Assembly (NCBI GenBank): GCA_029558735.1
Contig: JAKQDP010000047.1
Location: 209-64,208 of the forward strand
Direction: 5' to 3'
From: a bacterium
GTDB lineage: Bacteria > Patescibacteriota > Patescibacteriia > 2-01-FULL-39-33
Length of the DNA stretch: 64,000 nt
Below the pieces are notes generated by a model. The model was not told where the DNA came from, made no database searches, and saw nothing but the letters and a program-made list of their open reading frames with translations. Positions 22,750 to 64,000 of this stretch are shown one piece after another; position 1 is the stretch's first letter; the number at the start of each line of letters is the position of its first letter. A program made the translations under genes and the position numbers.

Positions 22750-22822
22750 CGCGGGGTAGAGCAGTTGGCAGCTCGGCGGGCCCATAACCCGCAGGTCGCC
22801 GGTTCGAGTCCGGCCCCCGCAA
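22750..22822 (+). tRNA. Initiator tRNA-fMet (anticodon CAT)
   Basis: Cloverleaf with a C1xA72 mismatch and three consecutive G:C pairs closing the anticodon stem (GGG/CCC). T-loop TTCGAGT. No encoded CCA. Confidence 0.85.
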
Positions 22823-22832
22823 CAAAATAGGA

Positions 22833-22904
22833 GCCAGGGTAGCTCAGTGGTAGAGCAGTGGACTCATAAGCCATTGGTCGTGGGTTCAATTCCCACCCCT
22901 GGTA
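22833..22904 (+). tRNA. tRNA with anticodon CAT (elongator Met, or Ile2 if lysidinylated)
   Basis: Acceptor GCCAGGG/CCCTGGT, D-arm GCTCAGTGGTAGAGC, anticodon loop CTCATAA, T-arm GTGGGTTCAATTCCCAC. Confidence 0.8.
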
Positions 22905-22913
22905 CATCCAGAT

Positions 22914-22999
22914 GCCGAAGTGGCGGAATTGGTAGACGCGCACGACTCAAAATCGTGTGGACTCTGTCCATGAGGGTTCGATTCCCTCCTTCGGCACCA
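22914..22999 (+). tRNA. tRNA-Leu (CAA), class II with a long variable arm; CCA encoded
   Basis: Acceptor GCCGAAG/CTTCGGC, anticodon loop CTCAAAA, long variable arm, T-arm GAGGGTTCGATTCCCTC, 3' ACCA. Confidence 0.85.
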
Positions 23000-39486: not shown

Positions 39487-39872
39487 GGGGATGTATCGCT
39501 TCGATAGGAATAATTTAAAAATTAACAAGCCGAGGTCGGTGTTACCTCGCTAAACCTGCCGACTAAGATAAGTGCAAACAACTTATTTGCCAAATTAAAA
39601 TCTGCTTTCAGCGGATTGGCTTTGGCTCCTGCCGTTGCTTAATTTAGCTTAACGGCCATCGCCTTGCCTTAGGCCCGACGGGCAACTAGCGGTGTTATAT
39701 TATCGGGCTCGGTGATAATCCCGCCTTGAGATTATCACTTAAAACTCCAAGGCCAAGCTGTTGCCGTTTTGCTCCTTTTTACAGGCAACAGACTAAAATA
39801 AAAAGGAGCTAAGCTTGTAGTTTAATTTTTAATCCTTATTCTTAGACAGGGGCTCATTACCCCTCATCTCCA
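39487..39872 (+). ncRNA. ssrA: tmRNA (ssrA), about 386 nt
   Basis: Immediately downstream of smpB. 5' GGGGAUG pairs with 3' CAUCUCC, including the G3:U70 alanine identity pair; the discriminator is A. There is an internal ORF ending …GCUUAA that gives the tag (A)NNLFAKLKSAFSGLALAPAVA*. Confidence 0.8.
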
Positions 39873-39891
39873 CTGATAAATAAATAAAATA

Positions 39892-41529: not shown

Positions 41530-41607
41530 GGACCGGTAGCTCAGTTTGGTTAGAGCGCTGCCCTGTCACGGCAGAGGTCGCGGGTTCAAGTCCCGTCCGG
41601 TCCGCCA
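41530..41607 (+). tRNA. tRNA-Asp (GTC), CCA encoded
   Basis: Acceptor GGACCGG/CCGGTCC, anticodon loop CTGTCAC, T-arm CGGGTTCAAGTCCCG, then a terminator hairpin (41620-41652). Confidence 0.88.
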
Positions 41608-43098: not shown

Positions 43099-43101
43099 AA
43101 G

Positions 43102-44493
43102 CTATTTACTTTTCTCAATCAAACCCTCAACAAATTGTTTAGCTTCTTCCAACTTTTCTTTTGACTCTCTTTTTTCTTTCAAAGATAATTTGATTAACTT
43201 TTCAATCTCTTTGCTTTTATCACTCTTAGACAATTTCAATAAATCTTTTGGAATTTTTATTTTTTTAACATCTTTGGGATATAAGTGAGAGGTTTGTCCT
43301 TTAACCTGCCTTTGTATAAGCTCATAGCCAACCTGCGAACGCATAAACAAAAGTAATACATAAGGGTTAATATCCGTCTTGGCTTTTATTGTTATTATTT
43401 CCGCCACTGTAAAAACTTTTTTAAATTCATCTGGTATATAATCAACAATATCAATCTTACTGCCGATATAACTGGCTTGGTGAGCGGCACAACCCAAAAC
43501 AATATTATCTTGCTCCAATGAGTTTTTATATTTATTGGAAATTTCCTCTTTAACAAAACCTCGCTCCTCATTCTCCCAATCAATGCCATTGCCTCTTATA
43601 GCTCTAAACTTCATAATTCTATTGCCACTCTCAACATAATCATCAAAGGCGGGAGTTTTACCAATTAAAACATCTGCCACATCACCCAATAAAATAAACT
43701 CATTTGGATTTTTTTCGTATTCATTTTCAAAATAGAAAAACGGGTCAATCCTATCTAATATATTTATTTCATTATTCCACTTAACAAATGATTTTTCCTT
43801 TTTGGAAATGTCTAAATATTTATTCAGCTCTTTATTAAAAATATCAACTGTTTTTTGATAATTATCTTTTGACTTTTCTAATAAACTCCAATAAATTTCT
43901 ATTATTTCTTTTACCTTTTCTTTTTCACTTGATTTTAATTCTGGCAATGTAATATTTCTAAAAAAATTCAAATCTAAAAATGGTCTTGTGCCAGCGTGAG
44001 CCATTATCTCAATTTTTTCTTTAAATAGGTTAGTTTTCAAAAAGGCATATAAAAAATAAACATTTAATTCATTTTTTGTTCTTAAAATCATTGCATTCTG
44101 GTTCATCAGTATTTTAGGGATAACTCTTGGCATTAAAAAACATTTCCCAACAGTATTGCCTGTAACAGTTATAACTATATCAAGAGGTTTAATTCTAAAA
44201 TTGGAATATTTATCCCAAAAACCATTATCAACCATTGCCAATCCATTAAAATCAATAACATCATCTATGTCTGATACTCTAAAAATACCAATCTCTCCAT
44301 TTGGTAAATAATCGGTGCTTTTAAACGCAAAACCCTTTATATAATCAGCAAAATCAAAAACATTATTATTTGAATATTTACTGGTATTTTGTTTTTCTGG
44401 GTCGTAAAAAGAAGTATCGCCTCTTTTAGTAAAATCAATCTGATAATTCCAAAGAATAAAACAATTATTTGTTTTTACATTTTCCTTTACCAT
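43102..44493 (-). CDS. HsdS-like specificity subunit (two target-recognition domains); candidate B subunit of a BcgI-like type IIB system
   Basis: 463 aa with duplicated TRD architecture. It overlaps the A-subunit gene by 7 nt. Confidence 0.7.
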   Translation of the reverse strand: MVKENVKTNNCFILWNYQIDFTKRGDTSFYDPEKQNTSKYSNNNVFDFADYIKGFAFKSTDYLPNGEIGIFRVSDIDDVIDFNGLAMVDNGFWDKYSNFRIKPLDIVITVTGNTVGKCFLMPRVIPKILMNQNAMILRTKNELNVYFLYAFLKTNLFKEKIEIMAHAGTRPFLDLNFFRNITLPELKSSEKEKVKEIIEIYWSLLEKSKDNYQKTVDIFNKELNKYLDISKKEKSFVKWNNEINILDRIDPFFYFENEYEKNPNEFILLGDVADVLIGKTPAFDDYVESGNRIMKFRAIRGNGIDWENEERGFVKEEISNKYKNSLEQDNIVLGCAAHQASYIGSKIDIVDYIPDEFKKVFTVAEIITIKAKTDINPYVLLLFMRSQVGYELIQRQVKGQTSHLYPKDVKKIKIPKDLLKLSKSDKSKEIEKLIKLSLKEKRESKEKLEEAKQFVEGLIEKSK

Positions 44494-46430
44494 AAATAAC
44501 TCTTATATTGTTTTTTAAACTTATCCCATTCCTTCAAAATCTCTGGGACATCAGTGTCCAAAGCTCCTTGCATTTCAACCAAAAGCGGGTCTTGTTTTGT
44601 TTTCTTACCTTTCTTATCGGTTAAATATTCAATCGGTCTATCCTCCCAATCAACCACTTCGCCCTTATTGTTTCGCTTATAGGTTTTTCTGCCTCTAATG
44701 TCATATCCTATTCTTTCTATATTGGCAAAAAATATCGGGTATTTTTCTGGGAGCTTGCCGTCTTTCGGCTTTTTAATAAATAGCACACTTGATTTTACTC
44801 CCGCTCCAAACGGGACAAAAGTTTCCTGAGGCAAACTAACAACTGAAATAATCTGCACTTTATCTTTTAGCCAAGCCCTTACAAACTCGGTATTCTGATT
44901 AGTTAAATCGCCGTCTGGCAAAACTATCGCCATTCTGCCACCCTCTTTAAGCAGTCCAATACACCGCTCAATAAACAAAATATCTGGCACTTGTCCGCCC
45001 CCTTTCTTGCCTGCCAATAATTTGCCTTTCTCAAATTCACCAGTCGCTTTATCTTTTTTCCAAGTATAGCCAAAATCATAATCAGCTAAAATATTTTGGT
45101 CTGACACTTTTCCTTTTGAGCCAAAAGGCGGGTTGGTCATTATAATATCAATGCTTTCTCTGGTAATTGTTTGATTAGTATTTTTACCCAGCTCGGAATA
45201 AGGAATAAGAGCATTGGAAGTCCAAATCCCAGTGTGTCCGTCATCAATCATTACCATATACATCTTGGCGACCTTAGTTAAATCATTATCAAAATCAATG
45301 CCTTTTATATGAGTAGTCGCATATTCTTTGATATTTCCTCTTAAAATTTCCCTTTGGTCTTTTGTTAGTTCACTGTCTTTAATTGGATTGCCATTTTCAT
45401 CAAGCCAGCCACGCTGTTTTTTAACCAAGTCCCTAAAATAATTAACCGCAAACACCAAAAAGCCAGATGACCCACAAGCTGGGTCAAGCACAACCTCGTC
45501 TGGTTCTGGCTCTAACATTTCAACAACAAGTTTTTTAATCGGGTCGGGAGTAAAAAATTGCCCAGCGTCTCCCCGAAAATATGCTCCCAAGAAAGATTGA
45601 AATGCCTCACCCTTAATATCGGTATCTAAGATTGTTATATTTTCAAACTCACGGACAACATTAGCAATCTGCCTTGTTGGTATTTCTATTTTTTCACTGC
45701 CGTCAAATATGTCTTTAAATTCTTGTCGGCTTTTTGCCTCATTAAATAAATCAAAAACTCTATTTTCAAATGCTTTACTTTTTCCAGTAGCTAAAATATC
45801 GTCCCATTCTCTATCATAAATAACAAATTTACATTCTTTATCAAAACTTTTTTCATCTTGTATTTTGGCAAACAAAAGATAAATTACTTGATAAAAAACC
45901 TTTGCCTTATTGCCTGCTTTATAATTGGCGTAAATATCGTTGTGTATGCGGTCAAATTTGGCTTGTAGATTGCTTGACGGTCGCAAATCTTTTTTCATTA
46001 TCTTTTTATCGCCGTATTGCTCACCATAGCGGGGGAGATTGGCTTTTTCTTCATATCGGTCTGGCTCTTTTAGTCTTTTCCAATATTTAATTTCCAAGCC
46101 GTTTGTCCAAACTCCAATTTGAGCGGTAGTAGAATTTACATAACCCTTTAATTGTGGCTCGCCGTCTGGGAGTTTAGCGTCTGGCTCTTTGCACTCAACT
46201 ATAATATAGTGATTTTCTCGTCTGTCCTTATCTTGTGGAGACGGATAAATAACAATATCAGCTCTTTTTTTATCGTCTCTGCCCATTTGGATTGGCACTT
46301 CCAAATCAATATTTTCTTTTGGATAGCCATACTCCTCAACAAGCTGACGAGCATATTCCTGCCTGACTTTTTCTTCTGGCGTTTCGGTTATTTCCAAGCC
46401 CCTTATATAACAAGTAATTTTATTTGCCAT
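44487..46430 (-). CDS. Fused PD-(D/E)xK nuclease-like N-domain and N6-adenine gamma-class methyltransferase (BcgI A-subunit-like)
   Basis: N-terminus has D…IVECK (PD-D/ExK). MTase motif I VVLDPACGSSGFL; motif IV TNPPFG. Confidence 0.75.
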   Translation of the reverse strand: MANKITCYIRGLEITETPEEKVRQEYARQLVEEYGYPKENIDLEVPIQMGRDDKKRADIVIYPSPQDKDRRENHYIIVECKEPDAKLPDGEPQLKGYVNSTTAQIGVWTNGLEIKYWKRLKEPDRYEEKANLPRYGEQYGDKKIMKKDLRPSSNLQAKFDRIHNDIYANYKAGNKAKVFYQVIYLLFAKIQDEKSFDKECKFVIYDREWDDILATGKSKAFENRVFDLFNEAKSRQEFKDIFDGSEKIEIPTRQIANVVREFENITILDTDIKGEAFQSFLGAYFRGDAGQFFTPDPIKKLVVEMLEPEPDEVVLDPACGSSGFLVFAVNYFRDLVKKQRGWLDENGNPIKDSELTKDQREILRGNIKEYATTHIKGIDFDNDLTKVAKMYMVMIDDGHTGIWTSNALIPYSELGKNTNQTITRESIDIIMTNPPFGSKGKVSDQNILADYDFGYTWKKDKATGEFEKGKLLAGKKGGGQVPDILFIERCIGLLKEGGRMAIVLPDGDLTNQNTEFVRAWLKDKVQIISVVSLPQETFVPFGAGVKSSVLFIKKPKDGKLPEKYPIFFANIERIGYDIRGRKTYKRNNKGEVVDWEDRPIEYLTDKKGKKTKQDPLLVEMQGALDTDVPEILKEWDKFKKQYKSYLW

Positions 46431-46437
46431 AGTTTTA

Positions 46438-46623
46438 TTATTTAGTTTCTACTTTATTTAAAAAATTATTAAATTCATTCTCATCAATCCTAAACTCTTT
46501 GCCAATTTTATATGCCCTAACCTTACCCGCCTTTATATAGCGGTATATAGTCATATTTGATACTCGCAGTTTTTCTGCTAATTCTTCAACGAGATAAAAA
46601 TCTTTTTTATTTTTTTGTGTCAT
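46438..46623 (-). CDS. Excisionase-family HTH DNA-binding protein (Xis-like, or a controller protein)
   Basis: 61 aa, FYLVEELAEKLRVSNMTIYRYIKAGKVRAYKIGKEFRI (HTH_17-type). Confidence 0.7.
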   Translation of the reverse strand: MTQKNKKDFYLVEELAEKLRVSNMTIYRYIKAGKVRAYKIGKEFRIDENEFNNFLNKVETK

Positions 46624-47003
46624 AGTATAGTTCCCTCTGTTTTAGCTTTTTTAATTAACTTATCAAAATCAGCTTTTGGTATAAGCGGACAAAACTGTCC
46701 CCATCTCCATTTACCGTCAGCTCCGTTAATTTTCCCAACTATGTAATAACCAATTCTATATTCAATATCACCCTTTTTCCAACCTTTATAAGCTATTTTG
46801 CCCTCAATTTTTTCCTTTCTTAATCTTTCAATAATAAAAACTTTTTTATCAAGATTATGCTGAGGCATAAGAGTTATTGCTTCTTTTACAAAATAAAATC
46901 TGCCTTCCCTGCCAATATCTTTCATTCCAATCAGTTTATCTTTTTGCTTTTCAAATTGCTCTTTTTTCCTTTTGATAAATTGTTGAGCCGTTTCCGTTTT
47001 CAT
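46620..47003 (-). CDS. Hypothetical protein (127 aa), cargo gene
   Basis: ORF track; ATGA overlap with the downstream HTH gene. No recognisable motif. Confidence 0.55.
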   Translation of the reverse strand: MKTETAQQFIKRKKEQFEKQKDKLIGMKDIGREGRFYFVKEAITLMPQHNLDKKVFIIERLRKEKIEGKIAYKGWKKGDIEYRIGYYIVGKINGADGKWRWGQFCPLIPKADFDKLIKKAKTEGTIL

Positions 47004-47005
47004 TT

Positions 47006-47539
47006 TTAATATTTATATAAATTTTTGAAATTATCTTTGTTTAACATCTCTCTATGCATTGCAAAAAACACCTTGTCCATTTCTCTGGGAGTAATATTAT
47101 ATTTTTTTGCTAACCCTCTCATTGTCTTTAAATATTCAATCCAATTATTAACCGACATATTATTTGATAATTTAAAACCAAGTTTTTTTAACATTTCAAC
47201 ACATCTTATATCAATTATTGCATATCGCTCTGGAAAAACAACAGTTAATATCGCAGAGGCAGTCGGTATACCAACGCCAGACAAGGAACATAACAATTCT
47301 ATTTTTTTACTCTCATCATTCTCCCTAAAAGCCAATTTTGAAATTGATTTTATACTATCTTTATTTTTTAAATAATTCGGCTTTTGCCTGTTTGACTTCC
47401 ACATCGCAATAGCAAAAAAATCATCAAAATCTAAATAACCCTTTCTTTTTACTTGCTTGCCAATATTATTAAATAAAAAATATTCCAAATCATAAAACTC
47501 CAAATATTTTTTAATTTCTTGTTTTGTGAGCTTTTTCAT
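47006..47539 (-). CDS. HhH-GPD superfamily (DNA glycosylase-like) small protein, cargo gene
   Basis: LSGVGIPTASAILTVVFPERYAIIDIRCVEML parallels endonuclease III LPGVGRKTANVVL…IAVDTHIFRV (helix-hairpin-helix plus Asp). No Lys is present at the lyase position. Confidence 0.5.
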   Translation of the reverse strand: MKKLTKQEIKKYLEFYDLEYFLFNNIGKQVKRKGYLDFDDFFAIAMWKSNRQKPNYLKNKDSIKSISKLAFRENDESKKIELLCSLSGVGIPTASAILTVVFPERYAIIDIRCVEMLKKLGFKLSNNMSVNNWIEYLKTMRGLAKKYNITPREMDKVFFAMHREMLNKDNFKNLYKY

Positions 47540-47597
47540 TTTTAGTATTTATACTGAGGTAATGCTATGTTAGCATTATACCTCATTTAACAATAGT

Positions 47598-48764
47598 TTA
47601 CAACTGGATTTGGCTTTGTCTTGGTTTTATGATATTAAATTGCTCGTGTTCTGCCTTTAAAAAAGCGACTAAATTCGGTAATTTACCGTCTATATTGGGT
47701 AATTCTGCCAGTGCCAAAGCTATCTCATTTTTAATCCTCGCTATGCTCCCACCTTTGTAGTTTTCTTTTATCATTTCCCATACAGATTTTATACCAAATT
47801 TGGTAGTCATACCCACCCAATAATACAGTTCAATTTGCTTTTTATGGCTTAAACCCGACTTATCCAAATAAACTAACAACTCATTATCTTTCATTTCCGA
47901 TAATCCCACCAATCCAATAGCAGTATTATCAAAAACACTATTGAAATTATCCAGTAAAATTTGCTTAGCTAAATTACTATTTAATACATCTTTAAGTATT
48001 AAATCTTTCTTCATTTTTCCCTCCAATCTCTTACCGACTACCGACTCTAAACTTCTTTTATTTTGAATAGCCAACTCAAATTTTACCGCACTTCTTTTTT
48101 GATTTTTATTAAACTGCTCTATCAGATTTTTTTCATAATCAGTATATCCTCGCTGTAAAAGCTCGCCAATTTTATCGTATATAACATAGCCCTGAGTGGT
48201 ATTCCAAAACTTTACCCCAACACCATTATCACCTCTATCAAAATATCTATTTAAGTTAAAATCAGAGCTGGGCTTATAGTTAAATTGAGATAACTTTATT
48301 ATTACCTGTGGGGCTTTACCAAGATAAGGCGGTAATATAATAATTTTAGAAAAATCCACCCTTTTTAATATTGCCCCCTCAATACTACTAATGTCTGTAT
48401 TTATGCCCGCCTCTTGTAAATAAGCCACTGTTGTCTTATTTATCTTGTTATAATCAGACTCATCTATCTCTAATAAACTTGTTCCATAAACCGCCTTTGG
48501 AAGTGAGATTTGGATTTCCAGTGTTTCCTTTTCTTCTTGATTGCCAGATTTTCTTATTGGTCTTTTTATATAAGGAAAGTATCTTCCATTTTTATGCTGG
48601 CTTTGTGAATACTCCCAACTGTCCGCCGTGCCAACAAAAAATCCCTTTCCGCCACTGCTTCGCTTACTATATAGCTTATGGCTATCTTGTATTTTATACT
48701 GCCCAGCTTTAAGCTCCCAAACAATACTATCAATCATAACTTGCCCTCCTCCTCTAATCGCCAT
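47598..48764 (-). CDS. Hypothetical protein (388 aa), first gene of the cargo operon
   Basis: ORF track. Low-GC codon usage matching the element. No motif recognised. Confidence 0.55.
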   Translation of the reverse strand: MAIRGGGQVMIDSIVWELKAGQYKIQDSHKLYSKRSSGGKGFFVGTADSWEYSQSQHKNGRYFPYIKRPIRKSGNQEEKETLEIQISLPKAVYGTSLLEIDESDYNKINKTTVAYLQEAGINTDISSIEGAILKRVDFSKIIILPPYLGKAPQVIIKLSQFNYKPSSDFNLNRYFDRGDNGVGVKFWNTTQGYVIYDKIGELLQRGYTDYEKNLIEQFNKNQKRSAVKFELAIQNKRSLESVVGKRLEGKMKKDLILKDVLNSNLAKQILLDNFNSVFDNTAIGLVGLSEMKDNELLVYLDKSGLSHKKQIELYYWVGMTTKFGIKSVWEMIKENYKGGSIARIKNEIALALAELPNIDGKLPNLVAFLKAEHEQFNIIKPRQSQIQL

Positions 48765-49049
48765 TTTATTTTTTGTAATGTGCTATAAAATCCCAACAAG
48801 TTATATCTCGCCTCAAACACCTCCTCCTCTTTTAAATCAAACGCCTCAACGAGTCCTTTTCGTTCAAGCTCATCTATTTTATTGTCCATAAACCATAAAA
48901 TCTCCGCAAATACGCAGAGACTTTATGAGACAATACCATTTATTGTCATTTGGACAATTTTATGATATAATAAACTTGCAGTTAGTTTACGCATAAATCT
49001 TGCGTGAATTTGCACAAAAACCCCTGTTTCCGCAGGCGGTTTTTGCTTT

Positions 49050-49688
49050 TTATATTGTTATTGTTATTCCACATTCTTTTAATCGGTAGCTGGCGGATTG
49101 CTCGGATACTTGAAATTCATCAGCCAAAACCGAAATACTTTTTACTTCCTTAAATTTTTTAATAAAATAATCCTGTGGCATTAAATACATAGCCGTTGCC
49201 TTATCTGTTGATTTTTCAAATAATTTTAAAACAACTTCTGGGGGCAATGTTGAATTGCACAACAATTCGTCAAAATAATTCTGAAATCCAACATCAAGCG
49301 ACTGAATAAAATGCATTGTCTCGTGTATCTTAGTAAATCTTTGTCTTTTGAGCGGAGTCGCTATATCATAAAATATTGTTATCTCACCAGTTTCCTCATC
49401 TAACTCCCAATAACCATCTCTTGTCTCTAAAAAACCATTAAAACCTTGATAACTTATTGTATAACCAGATAAATAATTAACGATTAAATCCGTGTCCATT
49501 GGCAAGGAAATGCCATTTGGGGCGGTTTTTATTATATCGTTAATCAATCTTTTACTATAAGCAACTAATTTATTTAACTCCTGATAATATATACCTTTGC
49601 AATCCGCTGGTATTCCGTCATTATAAGACTGCCTAAGCCAATACAGATTGTCTATTACATTAGAGCTCTTTCTTGATATACTTAGCAT
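49050..49688 (-). CDS. ImmA/IrrE-family metallopeptidase
   Basis: HEXXH motif HETMHF. Overlaps the upstream XRE gene, an ImmR/ImmA-like arrangement. Confidence 0.7.
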   Translation of the reverse strand: MLSISRKSSNVIDNLYWLRQSYNDGIPADCKGIYYQELNKLVAYSKRLINDIIKTAPNGISLPMDTDLIVNYLSGYTISYQGFNGFLETRDGYWELDEETGEITIFYDIATPLKRQRFTKIHETMHFIQSLDVGFQNYFDELLCNSTLPPEVVLKLFEKSTDKATAMYLMPQDYFIKKFKEVKSISVLADEFQVSEQSASYRLKECGITITI

Positions 49689-50061
49689 ATTTCAAAACAT
49701 TATTTATCTGTTCTGGCGTATAGCCGTTGCTCCTTAATGCCTGACTTATCATCTGAAAACTTGGCTTGGCTTTATTATCTAATATTCCAAGCTCCTCCAA
49801 AAAATCTTTTAAAGTCATATCAAAGGCGTCTGCCAGTTTCTTACAAGTCATCAAAGAAAGAGATTTGAAATCACCCTCCTTTAATTTAAAGATAAAAGCA
49901 GGGGAAAGTTCCGACCTTTCTGCTAAATCACTCCAAGAGAGATTTGATTGTTGCCTTAGTTTTTCAATTGTGTTTACTATGTTTTTCATAGGTTTTTGTT
50001 TATATGGTAGATATATCACCCACCTACTATCCATTATATACCTTATTTTCACTTTTGTCAA
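49660..50061 (-). CDS. XRE-family HTH transcriptional regulator (ImmR-like)
   Basis: IEKLRQQSNLSWSDLAERSELSPAFIFKLKEG HTH_3 pattern. The start is probably the internal Met (MKNIV…). Confidence 0.7.
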   Translation of the reverse strand: MTKVKIRYIMDSRWVIYLPYKQKPMKNIVNTIEKLRQQSNLSWSDLAERSELSPAFIFKLKEGDFKSLSLMTCKKLADAFDMTLKDFLEELGILDNKAKPSFQMISQALRSNGYTPEQINNVLKYAKYIKKEL

Positions 50062-50189
50062 TAGTATTTTTCACGATAGTGAAATATTACCGCATAGCCA
50101 AAAAATAGTCAAGTTTTTTTAATTCAACGCCAAAACTACCGACTATCTCTACCCAGTTTAGAGTTCTAAAATCGTCCCGTAGCCCCCGC

Positions 50190-50348: not shown

Positions 50349-51163
50349 CTAGTTCATCAGCCGATCCAGCGCCCAGCACCAATCCTTGACGCCGCCGGTG
50401 GTGAGTTGGGCATGCAATAATAGCGCCTTCTTGCCATTGATAATCATCGCCTCATTGGCATAATAATCAAAGGCAGCGCTAAAGGGATCTTGATGATGAT
50501 TAAGATCAGTCACCACCGCGGCATGAGCCCCGTGCTGGCAAGCTTCCAAAAGCAAGAACAGCCCATAGGGTATGTCCAGGCCGATATGCTTGGCGATCCC
50601 AGCTTCGCCCAGAGCGCCATCAGTGGCGACCGGCAAATGCAAATCAAGCAGGGCGTAAGCAAACTGACGCTCCCTTAACGCCAGCCGCGCCTGATCAAAC
50701 CCTTCGGCCACGACCAGATTGAAATTGCCCAGTTGATTCTTGGCCGCTTGCTGATTCTCTGGCTTGTCATCGACCACAAGGATCCAGGGCAGGCCCGGCT
50801 TTTCCGCTGAGACGGCCGATTCCACCACCGAAATCGCAACCTCAGTCTCTTCCTCCAGTTTGATTCCGGAAGAAATCCGCAACAATTCCACCAGACAATC
50901 ACTGATATCCACCTTAACAAAATTCGGCAAATCCGGCAGACTTGTTTCTGCCGGCTGGCCATAATCCAAAAGAACATACTGTTTGTCTTCGCGGTATTTT
51001 TCCGCTAATTTTTGACCTTATCAATAATAATCAAATCAGCTTCCTGAAAATCCGCCACCACTTCCGCTTCCGCCAACAAAACGGTCAGTACTGTCTGGAG
51101 TGCCACATTCACCGGCTGATTTGGTTTTTCGCCGCAATCAGTATAGATTCGCAATTTTCTCAT
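50349..51163 (-). pseudogene. Response-regulator receiver (REC) domain protein apparently split by a 1-nt frameshift in a T-run (50997-51001). Parts: 51005..51163 (N-terminal, REC-like) and 50349..50969 (REC plus C-terminal domain).
   Basis: The upstream part (MRKLRIY…AEAEVVADFQEADLIIIDKVKN*, SD AAAGGAG 8 nt before the ATG) stops at 51005. The downstream frame is open from 51017 and continues …KLAEKYREDKQYVLLDYGQPAE…LPWILVVDDKPENQ…ALLDLHLP. The two frames are offset by 1 at the T5 run. Confidence 0.45.
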
Positions 51164-51325
51164 TTTAAAGAGCTCCTTTTGTTGTTTAACCAATCTTCTA
51201 AATAAAAACCATAGCAAAAAACAATTATTTTGTCAATAATTTTATCCAAATAAAAAACCGCCCCAAAGCTTAATTCGCTCTGGGGCGTCAGTCAATATTT
51301 TGGGCAATTAGTCCCGAAGTGCCGG

Positions 51326-52177
51326 CTAAGCGACGGCTTCTTTAGAAGAGACGCTGTCAGTAATGTTAAGTGCCGACTGAATCATCTTGACGCCCTGTTC
51401 AAACAAGGCGCTGTCAATAAACGGCTGGTCATCATCAACCAATTCTTCCTGACGTCTGACCACCAAATCATCAGCGACCGTTTTCGGCCGAAGCGCCAAG
51501 TCCTTGATTAACTGACAGACATTTTTGGAACCGATAATCGTCTCGATCTCCTGTTCAATCGATTCTACTGCCTGCTCCTGCCGAGCCAATTCAGCCAGTC
51601 GGCTGATTAGTTCAGCCAGGCGCTGGTCGATGAACTGGCGATAATCAATGCCGCTACCCGACATCATCACTGCCAAGGCAACATGGATATCGCCAACATT
51701 AAGCCGCTTCTCCACTTCTTCCGGATTCTCCGAGCCTCGCAGCAGTAAATTGTGCTTGCGAAAAGCGCGATCAGCAATAACCGCCGCCGCATGAACTCGG
51801 CCACTAAACCGCTCCTTCAATTGAGCAACCTGATAAATGCTGGCATCCGCCACCAATAGATCCGCATCGGCCACATCAAAGGCATTGGCGGTGTAGCCGT
51901 AGCGACTGCCATTGCTCTCCAATACATAATGGGCAAAAATATCGCCACTAGCCAACCCTTGATCAAATTCCTCGGGGCTGATGCATTTCTTGGTGACTTC
52001 CACCACCCCTGGCCGACCGGGTCGGTCAGTGGTCTTGACCACGATTTTCACATTCAGATTGTCACGGCCAAGGCGCCGGCACACTTCGCGAAGCGCCTGC
52101 TCCTCCAAAATTTTGTCCAAGAGATAATCTCGGCCGGTGGCCGAAGCGCCGGGAATCAGAAGAATTGGTTTTTCCAT
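51326..52177 (-). CDS. Guanylate-kinase-like protein with a degenerate P-loop (GASATGRD) and a C-terminal coiled coil
   Basis: Alignable to Gmk: TTDRPGRPG ~ TTRQPRPGE; CISPEEF ~ FVNHDEF; GSRYGYT ~ GNYYGT; LLLRGSENPEEVEKRL ~ RLRGRGQDSEEVIAKRM. The Walker A Lys/Ser is replaced (GxSxTGRD). Confidence 0.6.
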   Translation of the reverse strand: MEKPILLIPGASATGRDYLLDKILEEQALREVCRRLGRDNLNVKIVVKTTDRPGRPGVVEVTKKCISPEEFDQGLASGDIFAHYVLESNGSRYGYTANAFDVADADLLVADASIYQVAQLKERFSGRVHAAAVIADRAFRKHNLLLRGSENPEEVEKRLNVGDIHVALAVMMSGSGIDYRQFIDQRLAELISRLAELARQEQAVESIEQEIETIIGSKNVCQLIKDLALRPKTVADDLVVRRQEELVDDDQPFIDSALFEQGVKMIQSALNITDSVSSKEAVA

Positions 52178-52327
52178 GATACTTGTTCCTTATTGTTTAT
52201 TCCGCCACCCACCTTGATTGGCAGATTAAATGATTGTAACAAAATAATTACTGAAGGTCAACCAAATAACTTGTTAATTTTAAAAGCCGCGAAAAAATAA
52301 CTTCTCGCGGCTAAGTCACCTTGCTCC

Positions 52328-52639
52328 TTAATCTATTGGCAGATCATTATTATCAGCCAATTTAACAACCAACAGATCAGTCAGCAACTCCAAAACGGCC
52401 CAAACCTGTTCCGCCACTGGAGTGGCCGTGATCGGCTTACCGGTTTTTTTGTCGGTAATCCAAATGGCCTGTCGACTGTTTTTATGAAAAATATTCTTGG
52501 CCGAACCCACCGCCTCAAATCCATTCTGATTAATCAAAAACAGCCAGGCGATGTCATAGGTAACCGGCCCAATCAATTGATTAAACACCTCTCGACCGCC
52601 AGTCTCCCCCCACATTCGAATCATATAAAAGTCGCTCAT
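52328..52639 (-). CDS. Roadblock/LC7-like small protein (about 103 aa from the Met at 52639)
   Basis: SD AGGAGG precedes the ATG at 52637-52639. AWLFLINQNGFEAVGSAKN resembles the roadblock core (cf. MglB VFLVDKNGQLISSAGQT). Confidence 0.5.
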   Translation of the reverse strand: MSDFYMIRMWGETGGREVFNQLIGPVTYDIAWLFLINQNGFEAVGSAKNIFHKNSRQAIWITDKKTGKPITATPVAEQVWAVLELLTDLLVVKLADNNDLPID

Positions 52640-52852
52640 TTTTCTCCTCCTATCGGCCCCATTGCCGATATCATAATTTAACAGATAAAAGGTCACCGGT
52701 CAATCCTTCCCGTCGCCTCTGCAAAAAATCGCTTTTTTTGTTATAATCAAGAAAGCCCAAACCAAGCAATGCCAGCCGACCAAAACCGCCTTAAATATTA
52801 ATTAGCGAATTGGCGGCTCTCAGTCAAAACCTAACAACTTAAATAATTAGCT

Positions 52853-53695
52853 ATGAAAAAAAATTATCTCTGGCTGGGACCAATCATAGTTTTAGCCCTC
52901 GCGCTCGCAATTATTATTTTCCTGCGTCTTACCTCACCCGAAGATACTTGGCTGTGCCAAGACGGCCAATGGGTCAAGCACGGCCAACCGACCGAAGCAG
53001 CACCGGCAACCGGCTGCGGTGATATCGCCGATCGCGACCTGACTAATGACGACTCAGCTGAACGCTGTCTTAACGGCGGCGGCGACTGGCTGGCTGATTA
53101 CCAGGAATGCGAAAATATTTCCCGAGATTTATGCGAAGAATTGGACGGCCGCTTTAATGATTGCGCCTCGGCCTGCCGCCACAACCCCGAAGCTGAATTC
53201 TGCACTATGCAATGCGTAGCGATTTGCCAGCTTAGCTCCACCAACACAAATATTAATAGCTTCGCTGCTTGCGTCCAGGCCGGTAATCCGGTTCAAGAAA
53301 GTTACCCGCGTCAATGCCAGGCCGGCAACCAGACTTTTATCGAGAATATTGGCAATGAATTGGATAAATCAGATCTTATCCGGTTGGACTCGCCCCGTCC
53401 CAACCAAATGATCAATAGCCCGCTTACCATCACCGGTCAAGCGCGCGGGTCATGGTTTTTTGAAGCGTCATTCCCAGTCATTCTGACCGACTGGGATGGT
53501 AAAATCATCGCTCAAACCATAGCCACCGCCCAAGGCGACTGGATGACTGAAGATTTTGTCCCTTTTAGCGCCACTGTGGAATTTGACCGGCCGGCTGCTG
53601 GTCAAAACGGCAGTCTAATTCTCCAAAAAGACAATCCCTCCGGCCTGTCCGAATATGACGACGCCCTGGAAGTCCCGGTCTTATTTGCGGAATAA
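52853..53695 (+). CDS. Secreted Cys-rich protein with a C-terminal Gmad2-like immunoglobulin-like domain
   Basis: N-terminal signal/TM, many Cys residues, and a C-terminus (SPLTITGQARGSWFFEASFPVILTDWDGKIIAQ…DWMTEDFVPFSATVEF) that is Gmad2-like. Confidence 0.6.
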   Translation: MKKNYLWLGPIIVLALALAIIIFLRLTSPEDTWLCQDGQWVKHGQPTEAAPATGCGDIADRDLTNDDSAERCLNGGGDWLADYQECENISRDLCEELDGRFNDCASACRHNPEAEFCTMQCVAICQLSSTNTNINSFAACVQAGNPVQESYPRQCQAGNQTFIENIGNELDKSDLIRLDSPRPNQMINSPLTITGQARGSWFFEASFPVILTDWDGKIIAQTIATAQGDWMTEDFVPFSATVEFDRPAAGQNGSLILQKDNPSGLSEYDDALEVPVLFAE

Positions 53696-56654: not shown

Positions 56655-57017
56655 TTACAAAGTGTTAATTATTTTATTTAACAACCTCATTACCTCATTT
56701 AATAAATCGTCAACAATTTTAAAATCCAAATCAACACTAAACTGCAAACGCCTGATAATTTCAATCTGTGTTTCCAGCTCTGCTCCGGATGAATAAGCGA
56801 TAAATAAAAAATGACGAAATTCGTTTTTACCGCATCTTCTCCTACCTTCGGCTATATTGGAAGGAATCGATACAGCCGAGCGCCGCATTTGAGAAGTCAA
56901 GTTATAAGTTTCCGATGAAGGAAATTTTTCGGTTATATTATAAATAGCAATCACTAAGTCCATGGCTTTCTGCCAAACAATCAAATCTTTGTAGCTATTA
57001 ATCATATTCCTATACAA
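56655..57017 (-). CDS. Four-helix-bundle protein (23S rRNA intervening-sequence protein family)
   Basis: DLIVWQKAMDLV…SQMRRSAVSIPSNIAEG… is the characteristic sequence. Confidence 0.75.
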   Translation of the reverse strand: MYRNMINSYKDLIVWQKAMDLVIAIYNITEKFPSSETYNLTSQMRRSAVSIPSNIAEGRRRCGKNEFRHFLFIAYSSGAELETQIEIIRRLQFSVDLDFKIVDDLLNEVMRLLNKIINTL

Positions 57018-60048: not shown

Positions 60049-60293
60049 ACTTTACGTTTTCCTTAAACAAAATAAATTAATACAAGCCGACCTTTCCTCT
60101 TTCCTAGTCCTAACGTTATTTTGTTGAGGAAATAGAAAGCGAAACTTGATGCTGTTAGTATAGCATATTCGGATAAAAGCGTCAATGGCAAAAATCCAAG
60201 CCTATTTATCAAGCGCCGACCGGCCAACACCTAAAATCGCCAAAACAAAAACCCCTCCGGTGTTAGCCGAAGGGGCGTCAAGTAAATATTAAG

Positions 60294-60731
60294 TTAAGGC
60301 GTCGGCGTGGTCTGGCCCATCAGCGCTTCAAAGACAAATTTTATCAAGGCGTAAGAGCTAAAAATAATTACAATGCCAAACACCGCCCAAATCATCATGG
60401 TTTTGCCCTTTTGAATCATGCCGGTGTCCCCCCGCGATACCATCCATAATACTCCGCCATAGATAAAGGCAATCAAAGCCAACACGCCGGTCAGTCCCAA
60501 AACTGCTTGGACGACCCGGTTGACTACTTCTTCAAAAGTAACATTTCCACCATCTCTACTAATAGGATTGGGTAATTTGGTGGAGCCCTCAGGATGGGCT
60601 GTGGCGTCTGGAACTTTCTCAGGTAATTCAGCAAATAAATCGGGTGGAGTGGCTAAAGTATTAGCAACACAAAAATTAAATAAAAAAACTAAGGAAAAAA
60701 TTAAAACAAACAAACCACGGTATTTAGTCAT
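60294..60731 (-). CDS. Stand-alone TrbC/VirB2-like pilin-like protein (145 aa)
   Basis: Signal peptide plus AVLGLTGVLALIAFIYGGVLWMVSRGDTGMIQKGKTMMIWAVFGIVIIFSSYALIKFV. This is the same module as the N-termini of the two giant proteins at 1-6843. Confidence 0.7.
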   Translation of the reverse strand: MTKYRGLFVLIFSLVFLFNFCVANTLATPPDLFAELPEKVPDATAHPEGSTKLPNPISRDGGNVTFEEVVNRVVQAVLGLTGVLALIAFIYGGVLWMVSRGDTGMIQKGKTMMIWAVFGIVIIFSSYALIKFVFEALMGQTTPTP

Positions 60732-60786
60732 AAAATAATTTTAATATTTAATTTAATATAATTATACCAAAAATAAAAACGGGCAG

Positions 60787-61881
60787 TCAATTGACTGCCC
60801 GAACATAAACCTGTCCGGCTCGGTCCAAACCGTAGATTGTGACCTGACCGTACTGGTCTACTTTAAATTTTTCCGAACCCCTTACTTGGTGTCCGGAAAA
60901 CGTAAATGGCGCCGTAGCACCATAAAATATTACTGTGCAACCGGGATAAACGATCACCCCGGTTTCTACCCGCTGACCCGGCTCAAAAGAAATGAGCTTG
61001 TCAGCGGGTTGGGTGGTATTTGAGGCCTTTTGCGGTCGCGCCGGAACTATCTTGCCGTCTTGATACTCAACGGCGTCAAGTGGCTCGATGGCCTCGGCCT
61101 CGGCCCAGAGCTCTTCTGAGTCTTTGATACCGGTTAGGGCATCCCAGACTCGAAAAGCCACAAACCCCTGGTCTTGATAGACGACCGGGGGTGTTGAGGA
61201 CAACTTGACCACTTCTTGGTCGGTCAAGCTGAGACCTTTGACAATCTCCGGCGGCTGGGGCTCGCCTTTTTCATCCAAGGTAATCCGATAAACTCTCGGC
61301 ACCTTGGACGTGGCTATTCCCCACGACTTTTTGGTCGTGGTTTTGGCCGCGGCCTGATTATTGGCTCGCGTCGTCCAATTAATAAACGACTGCGAGCGCA
61401 ACCCGGCCGACTGAGCATTCTGCGGCTGTTTGACTTGCCACAGTACCAGGAAAAATCCCAGCACTGCCAGCCCGATGGCGAGGTTTCTGGCCTTACCGCC
61501 ATAAGCGACGGCATAAGCCAGACCAGCGCCGGGTAGCAAGAATAACAGTTCCAGCACTGCGGCCTGGAACTCGCCGGGTTTTACCTTGTCGCCAAAAAAC
61601 GAGGCGACCCCGGCCGTGACAGGCATGCCGAACAACTGTCCGGCCGCCACGCGAAAGGCGATAAATGCGCCAATCGCCACGGCTACTAGCGCCAGCCGCT
61701 TGGCCATTCGCTTCGTGGCACTGTCCTTCTCATACTGTTCGCAGATTATCTCTGCGACAGCTCCGAAAAGGACCAACGCGAACAGAAACCGCATTGGGAA
61801 CGGAAGCAGGATGCGAATAATAATCGCAAACGCCAGCCCCAGTCCCAAACCAATTCCGATTTTTTTCAAAAAAGCACTCAT
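60787..61881 (-). CDS. Hypothetical membrane protein with a C-terminal soluble domain (GC-rich operon)
   Basis: ORF track; four to five TM helices followed by an extracytoplasmic domain of about 200 aa. GC is about 60%. Confidence 0.55.
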   Translation of the reverse strand: MSAFLKKIGIGLGLGLAFAIIIRILLPFPMRFLFALVLFGAVAEIICEQYEKDSATKRMAKRLALVAVAIGAFIAFRVAAGQLFGMPVTAGVASFFGDKVKPGEFQAAVLELLFLLPGAGLAYAVAYGGKARNLAIGLAVLGFFLVLWQVKQPQNAQSAGLRSQSFINWTTRANNQAAAKTTTKKSWGIATSKVPRVYRITLDEKGEPQPPEIVKGLSLTDQEVVKLSSTPPVVYQDQGFVAFRVWDALTGIKDSEELWAEAEAIEPLDAVEYQDGKIVPARPQKASNTTQPADKLISFEPGQRVETGVIVYPGCTVIFYGATAPFTFSGHQVRGSEKFKVDQYGQVTIYGLDRAGQVYVRAVN

Positions 61882-61946
61882 CTATCATCCCTCCAAGTTT
61901 GAGGCGAGTGGGGCAGTAGCATTACCACCCCACTCGCCGGACAATT

Positions 61947-62714
61947 TTACCGGAACATACCTCCAAGACCGGAGGTTAGGTTGGACAAAATATTCCCCCC
62001 CCACTCTCCGATGATATCAGTGAGGAGATCTTTATTAAACGACCAGCCACCCTGTGGCTTGGTCGCAGCCGCGCCTTCAGTCTCAGCTGTGCCAGCCGAG
62101 ACCGCTGCCCGCTTTTGCCGGGCTTTGGCGATCGCCTCCTTCAACTCGTCGAAGAAAGCGACTGGCGTATACGCCAGAGCGGCCAGAATGGACAGGAAGA
62201 AAATCGGCCAGTGCCACCACGACGGATACCACTGTACCGCCTTATCTTCCTCCTTCACTTCCGTGAAGGAGAAGCTGTCTTTCTGGCCATTGCTGACCAG
62301 AATTGCCACTCCCTTCCAGAAGTTGAAGCCTTCTTTGGCCTCATCTGGCACCGCCGCCTTGGCCTCGGCTTTGGCGTTTTTGTAAGTAGCGCTTTCACGC
62401 GCCTCACGCCAAGACGAGACTAAAATCGGCTCGCCAAACCCGGCCAAGATGGCCGAGACCAGCAGGACAATCGTGGTTGCCCAAGCGAGCAACCAACGAA
62501 TGTTGTTGTCCGACAGCGCTTTCAAAGCAAGCACTGCCTTGTCAACAACTGGCCGGTAGTCACGCCTAATAGCGACGACCACGACCGTGACCGCGACGGC
62601 GATGAGCCCGATAATGGACAGCCAATAGACCATCCACCACGAACCAACCCCGCCAAACACGCCCACAAACAGGGTAGCAACAATAAGCAGAAACAAAATA
62701 GAAAGAATAATCAT
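61947..62714 (-). CDS. Hypothetical polytopic membrane protein (GC-rich operon)
   Basis: ORF track; TM-rich, with a Trp-rich motif YPSWWHWPIFF. Confidence 0.55.
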   Translation of the reverse strand: MIILSILFLLIVATLFVGVFGGVGSWWMVYWLSIIGLIAVAVTVVVVAIRRDYRPVVDKAVLALKALSDNNIRWLLAWATTIVLLVSAILAGFGEPILVSSWREARESATYKNAKAEAKAAVPDEAKEGFNFWKGVAILVSNGQKDSFSFTEVKEEDKAVQWYPSWWHWPIFFLSILAALAYTPVAFFDELKEAIAKARQKRAAVSAGTAETEGAAATKPQGGWSFNKDLLTDIIGEWGGNILSNLTSGLGGMFR

Positions 62715-62734
62715 GGTATTTCTCCCTGCGTCGG

Positions 62735-63337
62735 CTACTTGCCGCCGCGGTTGTATTTGAAGCCGGCGGACACATTATCCCAAAATCCCTTCCACCCCTT
62801 TCTTCGACTGCTCACCTTGAATTTAGGCGGCGCCAGGGGTATGGGGTCGGCCGAGGTATCGGCCTGATTCCCACTGGCGCGGCAGAACAGCTGCCGCTTG
62901 GTCCGGCCCATTGCCTCGCTGACCTGAACGGCCAACAGCAACAGGCCCTCACTATTGGTGGCTACCGGCGCCGACCAGTCAACTGGCGCGCCGGTTTGGT
63001 CTGTCACCCTGTCAGTCGGGTGCAGACCCATGAGGACGATATTGGTCTGCTTGGCCTTGCCGTCCTCAGTAAACTGTACGGCCAGGCGATACAACGCCTC
63101 GCCCAAGGGCGAGACATTGACTTCGAGGCCGAACTTTTTCTTCTGTTCGGCCGCCGGCTTCTGTTGTCCGGGCTGTTGGCCCGGAGCCGGCTGCCCGCCT
63201 TGCGGGGCGGGGTTTCCGGCCGGTGCCGGATTGGGCTTTCCACCCGCCGGTTGAGCCGGACGGGCAATTCCACAAGCAAGACAATTCTTTGCCTTGCCGT
63301 GGTTTGTGTTCCCGCAATTACACTTCCAATTAGCCAT
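62735..63337 (-). CDS. Zinc-ribbon (CxC…CxxC) protein with a Pro/Gln/Gly-rich linker and a C-terminal domain of unknown function (GC-rich operon)
   Basis: MANWKCNCGNTNHGKAKNCLACG, then PAQPAGGKPNPAPAGNPAPQGGQPAPGQQPGQQKP, then a globular C-terminus. Confidence 0.6.
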   Translation of the reverse strand: MANWKCNCGNTNHGKAKNCLACGIARPAQPAGGKPNPAPAGNPAPQGGQPAPGQQPGQQKPAAEQKKKFGLEVNVSPLGEALYRLAVQFTEDGKAKQTNIVLMGLHPTDRVTDQTGAPVDWSAPVATNSEGLLLLAVQVSEAMGRTKRQLFCRASGNQADTSADPIPLAPPKFKVSSRRKGWKGFWDNVSAGFKYNRGGK

Positions 63338-63484
63338 TTTATGGCCCTCCTTTCTTATTTGTAAACCCGAATTGTAACGAACATTTCGGGATTTTTTCCC
63401 TCTTTCTACCCTCTTTTATCACACAAAAAAGGGTAAAATTAGAGTAAAATCACCTTTCCATTAGTTTTTTACTTGTAATATATA

Positions 63485-63513
63485 ATTATAGCACGCTTTG
63501 AATATTTTGTCAA
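63485..63513 (-). promoter_or_regulatory. Consensus sigma70 promoter on the minus strand (TTGACA-17-TATAAT) driving the GC-rich operon
   Basis: Minus-strand TTGACA (plus 63508-63513), an exact 17-nt spacer, TATAAT (plus 63485-63490). This is about 140 nt upstream of the ATG at 63337. Confidence 0.7.
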
Positions 63514-63595
63514 TAGAAGTAAAAAAATATCAAAAATAAAAAATTGGCTATAAAAACCAATAAAAAAATATAAATTTGCTGTTTAAATTGTTTTT

Positions 63596-63811
63596 GCCGC
63601 CTTTGGAAATTCAGTGACAAAATCAAGCTTTTTTGAATTTTAGTATCAAAAAACCAGCACTGAAAAATTTGGATTAAGCGAGAGGCAAAGTAGCAATGCG
63701 AACAAATCTGCCGCCTTTGGAAATTCAGTGACAAAATCAAGCTTTTTTGAATTTTAGTATCAAAAAACCAGCACTGAAAAATTTGGATTAAGCGAGAGGC
63801 AAAATGAGTTA
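63596..63811. repeat. Perfect tandem duplication of about 100 bp (two copies separated by a 17-bp spacer)
   Basis: TGCCGCCTTTGGAAATTCAGTGACAAAATCAAGCTTTTTTGAATTTTAGTATCAAAAAACCAGCACTGAAAAATTTGGATTAAGCGAGAGGCAAA occurs twice, identically. Confidence 0.85.
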
Positions 63812-64000
63812 CAAAATTTTTATTGTTTGAGACCGTCCCGAGTACTCGGGACGGGCGAGTTTAAAAATTTTGTTGGAATTTTGCCTGAAGCGCCAAATTT
63901 TTCAAAAGCTGGGAGTTTTGGCGCCACCTTTTACGGCTAAAAGGTGGCAAAAAAATAGTATAAAAACAATATCTTATTAAACAAAATTTACTTCATCTTC

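Follow-up and report, generated by a model that had tools for sequence, protein, structure and literature searches.

A conserved Patescibacteria gene cluster with a probably structured 5′ leader, two membrane proteins and an adjoining VirB2-like pilin gene

The 64,000-nt stretch analysed here (hereafter the window; contig JAKQDP010000047.1, from a bacterium of the Patescibacteriota) carries, within positions 60294-63513, four minus-strand open reading frames (ORFs), which we denote g1–g4. The first three are a previously unannotated module with a conserved leader upstream of g1; the fourth encodes a VirB2-like pilin. Our reading of the whole, to which we would give about an even chance, is that of a vertically inherited Patescibacteria cluster which builds an envelope complex together with the pilin. 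The anatomy of the cluster, its vertical inheritance and its restriction to the Patescibacteria (Candidate Phyla Radiation, CPR), the only group in which it has been seen so far, are jointly very probable on the strength of the comparisons described below.

All four genes run in the same direction, as had been noted in an earlier description of this DNA made from the letters alone (the sequence-only reading). g1 (62735-63337; 200 amino acids (aa), ATG start) encodes a protein with a zinc ribbon, a linker, an immunoglobulin (Ig)-like sandwich and a helix; g2 (61947-62714; 255 aa) encodes a polytopic membrane protein; g3 (60787-61881; 364 aa) encodes a protein predicted to consist of five transmembrane (TM) helices, two beta domains and, between them, a stalk helix; and g4 (60294-60731; 145 aa) encodes a VirB2/TrbC-like protein of the T4SS_pilin type. 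The regulatory features given below lie on the same strand.

Transcription of the module would start at a near-perfect sigma-70-type promoter with an extended −10 element (63485-63513), run through a leader of ~140 nt and then g1, g2 and g3, and end at an intrinsic terminator. The promoter comprises a −35 box TTGACA (63513-63508), a 17-nt spacer and the extended −10 element TGcTATAAT (hexamer at 63490-63485); it scores 12/12 plus the TG extension in our promoter scan, and 147 nt separate its end from the ATG of g1, which is preceded by a ribosome-binding site, AAGGAGGG, read at 63345-63352. The sequence-only reading had described a perfect TTGACA-17-TATAAT promoter about 140 nt upstream, and it is indeed found at 63513-63485. 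Exact matches to this pattern are rare, there being only two in the 64 kb; with up to one mismatch allowed, seven are present where shuffled sequences lead one to expect 0.76. An equivalent of the form TTGAC(A/C)-17-TGnTATA(A/T/G)T lies upstream of g1 in all eight other orthologous loci for which the upstream DNA is complete. A little way upstream of the promoter is a 114-bp tandem duplication (63595-63803; 1.8 copies, 100% identical), and terminator-like hairpins lie farther out (~63850-63950).

At the stop codon of g3 there is a strong intrinsic terminator hairpin (60780-60801; CGGGCAGTCAATTGACTGCCCG followed by the T-run TTTTTATTTTT). Long GC-rich hairpins with a T-run also follow g3 in the orthologous loci that we denote L007, L015, L019, L025, L020 and L024, and equivalents of this terminator were found in every orthologous locus examined. 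The pilin gene has a promoter of its own (60761-60790; TTGACT-18-TGgTATAAT, 11/12 plus the TG extension), the −35 box of which sits within the g3 terminator stem, and it ends at a second intrinsic terminator (60251-60276; GCCCCTTCGG...CCGGAGGGGT then TTTTTGTTTTG). Because of the terminator at the g3 stop and the g4 promoter, g1–g4 do not form one simple operon; the transcription units, as read from these elements, are a g1-g2-g3 operon and g4 alone. Of the four-gene operon originally described, the g1–g3 part therefore stands, whilst g4 is split off by the terminator (60801-60780) and the promoter (60790-60761).

Relatives of the module are few. An exhaustive phmmer search with concatenated g1, g2 and g3 against 1.84 billion representative proteins returned 72 proteins, about 30 of them g3-like, about 35 g2-like and a handful g1-like; a word-indexed search with g1 and g3 recovered no more than three or four clusters, and a metagenome scan with a narrower g3 alignment gave six loci only. 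We compared loci down to ~25% identity (L007/L008, L010, L015, L019, L020/L022, L021, L023, L024, L025 and L026), scoring their ORFs with hidden Markov models (HMMs) of the families. The order zinc-ribbon protein, g2, g3 is found in every locus with enough upstream sequence, and a PF18895 pilin gene follows g1-g2-g3 in all eight independent loci with downstream DNA. The full order, with a gene for a secreted TPR protein inserted between g3 and the pilin gene in one subgroup, is seen in the clade of the window and in L007/L008, L010, L015, L019, L020/L022, L021, L024 and L025.

The surroundings of the cluster are conserved in part. lgt lies directly upstream in four lineages (L002, L007, L019 and L025), and in three of these (L007, L019 and L025) g3 is 48%, 35% and 34% identical to that of the window, respectively; L007 and L025 also have PPDK close by on the upstream side, and an RRM gene lies downstream in L007 and L010. 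The named homologues belong to the Patescibacteria group, the Parcubacteria group and Candidatus Falkowbacteria only. The species of the window itself recurs on many contigs from anaerobic digesters and activated sludge. Ratios of nonsynonymous to synonymous divergence (dN/dS) of 0.17-0.23 indicate purifying selection overall. In L019, a 429-aa membrane protein encoded between lgt and g1 (1969-3258) is weakly g3-like (hmmsearch E 5e-11), and may be a paralogue of the g3 family.

The sequence-only reading had taken the cluster for a horizontally acquired operon of foreign origin with a GC content of 60-67%. This GC range is reached by g1 (0.609) and by a few 200-nt windows, with local peaks of no more than 0.65, but not by g2 (0.549) and g3 (0.544), and g4 (0.429) is host-like, the rest of the window having a GC content of 0.414. 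The GC content at third codon positions (GC3) does deviate from that of the host in g1, g2 and g3 (0.70, 0.66 and 0.60; z-scores of +4.2, +3.5 and +2.6 against 39 other genes of the window), g4 being unremarkable in this respect (0.425; z-score of −0.3). Given their own amino acids and the codon usage of the host, g1–g3 would be expected to have a GC content of 0.48-0.53 and a GC3 of ~0.47; the observed values of 0.55-0.61 and 0.60-0.70 are above this expectation. About half of the excess reflects proteins rich in Ala, Gly, Pro and Arg, and about half a preference for codons ending in G or C.

Being clear compositional outliers in the window, with a codon choice that departs from host usage, g1–g3 could be imagined as an operon recently acquired, together with its own strong promoter, from a high-GC donor. 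The same offset is, however, present in orthologues, with g1–g3 at 0.56 and flanking genes at 0.46-0.49 in L007, at 0.51-0.52 and about 0.38-0.47 in L015, at 0.46-0.51 and 0.39-0.43 in L019, and at 0.44-0.46 and 0.35-0.39 in L025; it is absent in a low-GC subgroup (L020, L021 and L024). Since these four orthologous loci have it in common, the offset predates their divergence, and on this comparison the locus has long had its GC excess, which is no mark of a recent import. Moreover, orthologous clusters have the same neighbours in relatives down to 34% identity, all named relatives are from the CPR, and the pilin gene is not GC-rich. No integrase, tRNA or direct repeats adjoin g1–g4, a tblastn search with g3 found no match in plasmid and phage collections, and no high-GC donor of matching composition was found among the 72 relatives, which are on low-GC contigs where inspected. 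The sequence-only reading would have been refuted by a host-like GC3 or by a lack of synteny elsewhere, and neither applies: GC3 is deviant, and synteny exists. The synteny is, however, orthologous and in low-GC relatives, which argues against import. We consider recent acquisition highly improbable. A phage or defence origin was likewise considered and rejected, there being no PHROG or PADLOC match and no phage or plasmid tblastn match.

One comparison, that of the window with L010, does speak for a degree of recombination between alleles: the synonymous divergence (dS) of the adjacent RRM gene is 0.018 and that of g1–g4 is 0.55-1.19. The segment 59791-63337 is accordingly a mosaic, in which the RRM gene, the g3-g4 intergenic region (identical at 55/55 positions) and the leader (96%) are near-identical and the coding sequences of g1–g4 are diverged. 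This pattern suggests either that the cassette was swapped for a divergent allele of the same locus, or that the noncoding parts are under extreme constraint. Allele replacement of this sort occurs at other surface-antigen loci; in L010 it would concern alleles of one locus and would bring in no new locus, a point against the import explanation. With the shared offset, the conserved neighbours, the CPR-only distribution and the lack of mobility genes taken together, the cluster is, as far as sequence can tell, vertically inherited rather than a high-GC operon of recent import. An old vertical locus can thus carry a lasting local GC excess, which makes composition alone a poor indicator of horizontal gene transfer in these genomes.

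The ~140-nt 5′ leader of g1 (63353-63478) is conserved and probably structured. It contains hairpin HP1, with a 16-bp core stem and two outer pairs (63400-63442), hairpin HP2 (63366-63390; CCCGAA...UUCGGG, then UUU) and a UUACAAUU box (63370-63377). Promoter and leader together are 87% identical between the window and L007, where the coding sequences are 61-65% identical, and 96% identical between the window and L010, where the coding sequences are 73-84% identical. The noncoding stretch of high identity starts exactly at TATTGACA and extends from the −35 box to ~15 nt before the ribosome-binding site. The leader hence outlasts synonymous sites that are saturated, remaining 87-96% identical between such alleles.

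Folding of the 149-nt leader RNA gives a minimum free energy of −40.4 kcal/mol (z-score of −4.62). In the more distant leaders of L015, L019 and L025, HP1 appears to be retained through compensatory changes: 6 of 17 pairs are changed on both sides, as opposed to 0-1 in slid controls, and 89.6% of cells are paired, a level attained by 0 of 500 shuffles, both figures coming from only four distinct sequences, too few to assess covariation statistically. The eight other loci with complete upstream DNA have leaders of 68-250 nt with a stable hairpin, and a UUGACAAUUU-like box is located 25-110 nt ahead of the start codon in 9/9 orthologous leaders (in L021, in part). The element is single-copy and located upstream of g1 only. 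Neither the leader of the window nor the eight orthologous loci scanned matched any of 4227 Rfam families at the gathering score, and the g1 leader offers no convincing terminator/antiterminator alternative. We regard it as a candidate for a new cis-regulatory RNA.

The leader might instead be an independent small RNA gene, consisting of the promoter, a ~110-nt RNA and HP2 as its terminator, that lies upstream of g1 by chance. The UUU after the HP2 stem would fit such a gene, as would a conservation far above that of the downstream coding sequence. The U-tract is, however, only three residues long, and no other promoter for g1 is evident from HP2 to the ATG. The distant leaders, while varying in length (68-250 nt) and in hairpin sequence, always lie between the same type of promoter and g1, and the element is present nowhere else; a separate small RNA gene is thus very unlikely, and a leader belonging to g1 is the reading that we retain.

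Further candidate explanations of the leader were tried and set aside. A leader peptide was rejected, as the sole ATG of the leader opens a 3-codon ORF that is missing in L007. A second promoter at the TTGACAATTT box was rejected, as no −10 element is found at 16-18 nt in any locus. The TTGACAATTT pattern with up to one mismatch has 29 matches in the window against 14.4 expected from shuffles, an approximately twofold excess, and is without positional pattern there, so that a role as a regulon motif was also set aside. That the zinc finger of g1 binds GGU in its own leader is speculation only, the GGU motifs not being conserved in L015. In L019, the 3′ part of the leader contains a tandem duplication of 2 x ~77 nt (3450-3640); the duplicated unit holds AAGAGGGU, a GGGAA/UUCCC hairpin and a UUAACAAUUU box.

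The g1 product begins with a four-cysteine zinc ribbon, WKCNCGNTNHGKAKNCLACG (residues 4-23), followed by a disordered linker rich in Pro, Gln and Gly (30-65), an Ig-like beta-sandwich (68-170) in an AlphaFold2 model (10 sequences; mean pLDDT 76, with the sandwich at ~90) and a conserved C-terminal amphipathic helix (181-197; GFWxN...NRG). The four cysteines are kept in 8/9 orthologues. No TM segment or signal peptide is predicted, and the protein is therefore predicted to be soluble and cytoplasmic. The sequence-only reading had described a RanBP2-like ribbon fused to a Pro/Gln/Gly-rich linker and a C-terminal domain. The four-cysteine motif, linker and domain are all present; the RanBP2 class is less certain, because the ribbon reads W-x-C-x1-C-x3-N-x6-C-x2-C, one spacing off the RanBP2 consensus W-x-C-x(2,4)-C-x3-N-x6-C-x2-C, and no zinc-finger model of Pfam or NCBIfam scores above threshold. 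PDB profile matches to eL40 and the RBM10 zinc finger are weak (E 0.02-0.3). Among PDB folds, the g1 model comes closest to 4lba, a Bacteroides conjugative-transposon lipoprotein (E 4e-4, TM-score 0.6), which at the level of the model is a generic Ig-like resemblance only. Between the window and L007, residues 27-52 (PAQPAGGxPNPAPAGNPAPQGGQPAP) differ at one position (Lys for Asn), a near-identity that is unusual for a disordered linker; the two proteins are 55% identical overall.

Four hydrophobic segments are found in the g2 product, which ends in an amphipathic tail. The sequence-only reading had recognised in it a polytopic membrane protein with a Trp-rich motif, which we confirm (YPSWWHWPIFF); the motifs of the family (NNxRW, SAIxAGFGEPIL, YPSWWHW and Y.P.AF.DE) are sharply conserved and located at helix ends. 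For g3, an AlphaFold2 model built with 31 sequences (mean pLDDT 81, beta domains >90) comprises five TM helices (residues 2-151) and a polar stalk helix of 33 residues (153-185), after which come two beta domains, one at 187-280 and a small cupin-like barrel at 295-364. Both beta domains are predicted to be extracellular; the ectodomain of about 200 aa that had been proposed for this protein is upheld as a prediction, with ~210 aa outside following the five TM helices. The g3 family motifs are LE..EKDSAxKR and VLWQVKQP. Within g3, evolution is fastest in the last beta domain (nonsynonymous divergence, pN, of 0.42 between the window and L010).

Profile and structure searches, which the sequence-only reading had recommended, did not identify the products of g1–g3: they gave no Pfam family and no clear solved fold. 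There was no Pfam, NCBIfam, PHROG or PADLOC match and no PDB sequence match by profile for any of the three; a Foldseek search with g3 found no match in the PDB or in BFVD (viral proteins) at E<1e-3, and its last domain merely resembles small cupin barrels. Paralogy among g2, g3 and the pilin was considered and rejected (hhalign probabilities <1%). Strain variants of g3 within the same species (P0001 and P0022-P0033) differ mostly in the first ~50 residues, covering TM helices 1-2, and at a few C-terminal residues; residues 51-336 are invariant save for a single substitution at position 218 in one variant. A diversity-generating retroelement target was rejected on this basis, as the variation affects TM1-2 and a few C-terminal residues, with no adenine-specific variable region.

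The assignment of g4 as a VirB2-like pilin, already made in the sequence-only reading, is supported by two Pfam models, T4SS_pilin PF18895 (39.5 bits, cut-off 26.6; 5.9e-10) and TrbC/VirB2 PF04956 (32.9 bits, cut-off 27.9; 7.8e-8), and the protein is named 'pilin' by NCBI. Its hydrophobic segments (6-24, 77-95 and 112-130) correspond to a signal peptide and a two-TM hairpin. Two adjacent giant proteins encoded at 1-6843 (917 and 996 aa) carry a PF18895 module at the N-terminus, followed by Ig-like/TIG domains. The claim that g4 is a copy of the module heading these proteins also proved sound: it is 36% identical to the N-terminal module of the 996-aa protein (3853-6843), which matches PF18895 as well, and both helices are conserved. 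The pilin-like hairpin appears to anchor large surface proteins in the membrane by their N-terminus. A 1511-aa Laminin_G_3/DUF4215 protein adjoins the giant pilin-module proteins; the observation covers positions 1-6843 of the window and L012 1-7034. In a survey of CPR pilins, VirB2-like pilins are described as widespread, abundant and variable in CPR and as being among the most expanded surface gene families, and the single cultivated Patescibacteria strain tested required its pilin array (PMC12102498).

The constant adjacency of a VirB2-like pilin gene raises the question of whether g1–g3 are diverged inner-membrane parts of a CPR type IV secretion system (T4SS), i.e. analogues of VirB3/PrgI, VirB6/PrgH and VirB8/PrgL, with VirB4 encoded elsewhere. 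g3, being polytopic with an extracytoplasmic domain, is in this respect like some VirB6 proteins; the g1 sandwich has its best fold match in a protein from a conjugative transposon; and CPR T4SS genes are often scattered, the pilin gene not being near virB4 in ~40% of virB4-carrying CPR assemblies, according to the same survey (PMC12102498). Against this, g1–g3 have no Pfam or NCBIfam matches to the VirB3, VirB6, VirB8, TrbL or Prg families and match no T4SS component of the PDB, whether by sequence or by fold, the 4lba match being to a generic Ig-like sandwich with an E-value of 4e-4. The genes annotated across the 64-kb window, and those flanking each locus, include neither VirB4 nor the type IV coupling protein (T4CP), nor any other assembly gene of a T4SS or a type IV pilus (T4P). 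No cytoplasmic zinc-ribbon/Ig-like protein is known among T4SS components. We therefore consider a diverged T4SS quite unlikely.

The functional model that we put forward, tentatively, is that of a pilin-associated surface complex. The g2 and g3 proteins would form a membrane platform, on the inner face of which the g1 protein would be docked as a cytoplasmic adaptor through its amphipathic helix, binding either the membrane or a partner. The stalk helix of g3 would hold the beta domains off the membrane, so that a variable ectodomain would be displayed at the surface, and the platform would cooperate with the membrane-inserted pilin-like g4, made from its own promoter, as a partner, anchor or fibre subunit. 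The purpose of the complex may be contact with other cells or with host surfaces, and the leader would set the output of the operon. The sequence-only reading had suggested a pilus, secretion-associated or surface-remodelling module of foreign origin; the surface module remains a reasonable reading, given the pilin gene in 8/8 loci and the predicted g3 ectodomain, and the foreign origin does not.

Another possibility is that g1–g3 are a system for envelope or membrane homeostasis, such as lipoprotein maturation in view of the neighbouring lgt, and that the pilin gene is a mere conserved neighbour. This would account for the terminator and separate promoter between g3 and g4 in every locus, for the different composition of g4, for lgt being immediately upstream in four lineages and for the TPR gene that may intervene between g3 and g4. 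Yet the adjacency of g3 and the pilin gene persists where the linkage to lgt is lost (L015, L020, L021 and L024), and it persists down to ~25% identity, something seldom seen for unrelated genes when genomes are streamlined and flanks rearranged. We hold an unconnected pilin to be unlikely. Similarly unlikely, in our estimate, is a more far-reaching version of the surface complex, in which g1–g3 and the pilin would constitute an undescribed, ATPase-less surface apparatus, so far seen in Patescibacteria only, whose membrane platform would present the fast-evolving ectodomain and touch host or other cells by means of a pilin-like subunit. The leader would then belong to a new class of structured leader RNAs, as a riboswitch or the site of an RNA-binding protein, for example that encoded by g1.

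Several points weigh against the reading of the cluster as an old, pilin-associated envelope complex. As the cluster and the window have no ATPase gene and no T4SS/T4P assembly gene, a true pilus made from this cluster alone is unlikely. The own promoter and different composition of g4 mean that its link to g1–g3, as read from the sequence, would be one of conserved adjacency only. The topology with g3 outside and g1 inside is something that we infer from hydropathy, the positive-inside rule and the AlphaFold2 models, not from a dedicated predictor. Finally, for the persistent GC3 excess only conjecture can be offered, namely selection for expression or GC-biased gene conversion at a recombining locus.

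Patescibacteria live attached to other microbes, and the manner of contact is largely unknown. A fixed trio of unannotated partner genes that accompanies one pilin gene across deep divergence, preceded by a leader RNA conserved well beyond synonymous sites, is a concrete and testable handle on the surface biology and gene regulation of these bacteria.

Elsewhere in the window, a low-GC (0.27-0.37) integrated element lies beside tRNA-Asp (41530-50100), where a serine recombinase, an N6-methylase/Eco57I-type restriction-modification gene, a Peptidase_M78-like protein and HTH regulators are encoded. It is here, and not at g1–g4, that the window has its horizontally acquired island. The second exact TTGACA-17-TATAAT match borders this element (minus strand, 50061-50033). 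At 50349-53695, a three-gene block (proteins of 206 aa and 283 aa and a Gmad2-domain protein) has a GC content of 0.52-0.54 and a GC3 of 0.54-0.61, and PK and PPDK near this block have a GC3 of ~0.53; the whole of 50-63 kb is therefore GC-shifted relative to 1-40 kb. The window further carries the tmRNA gene beside smpB (39487-39875), a tRNA-Met/Met/Leu cluster (22750-22999) and the gene for a 23S rRNA intervening-sequence protein (56655-57017), a housekeeping context in keeping with normal chromosomal DNA of a bacterium with a small genome.

Of the known systems, T4SS clusters of the MPF_FATA (monoderm) type resemble the present cluster in combining small polytopic membrane proteins with a membrane-inserted, pilin-like protein, in being surface-related and in occurring in CPR. 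They differ in being defined by a VirB4 ATPase, which neither the cluster nor the window encodes, and in components (VirB3/PrgI, VirB6/PrgH and VirB8/PrgL) to which g1–g3 bear no resemblance in sequence or fold. The g1 ribbon shares with the PF13240 zinc_ribbon_2/DZR and RanBP2 types its four cysteines in a C-x-C...C-x2-C arrangement, and the g1 homologues of L015 and L020 carry a weak PF13240 annotation; its C-x1-C spacing is outside the x2-4 of RanBP2. Many bacterial zinc-ribbon proteins have a TM helix after the ribbon, unlike g1.

Like the VirB2/TrbC-like pilins of Patescibacteria, g4 scores above the cut-offs of both Pfam models and combines a signal peptide with a two-TM hairpin; it is one of several PF18895 modules in the genome of the window. 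Unlike the pilins of the survey, it is constantly paired with g1–g3, a set not described in that source as read here (PMC12102498), and virB4, virB3, virB6 and a T4CP gene are all lacking near it. As to cis-regulatory leaders (riboswitches, protein-binding leaders and attenuators), the g1 leader stands outside all 4227 Rfam families, but resembles them in being a long 5′ untranslated region that is much better conserved than its coding sequence, in having a stable hairpin with apparent compensatory changes and in having a conserved, unpaired-looking box near the ribosome-binding site.

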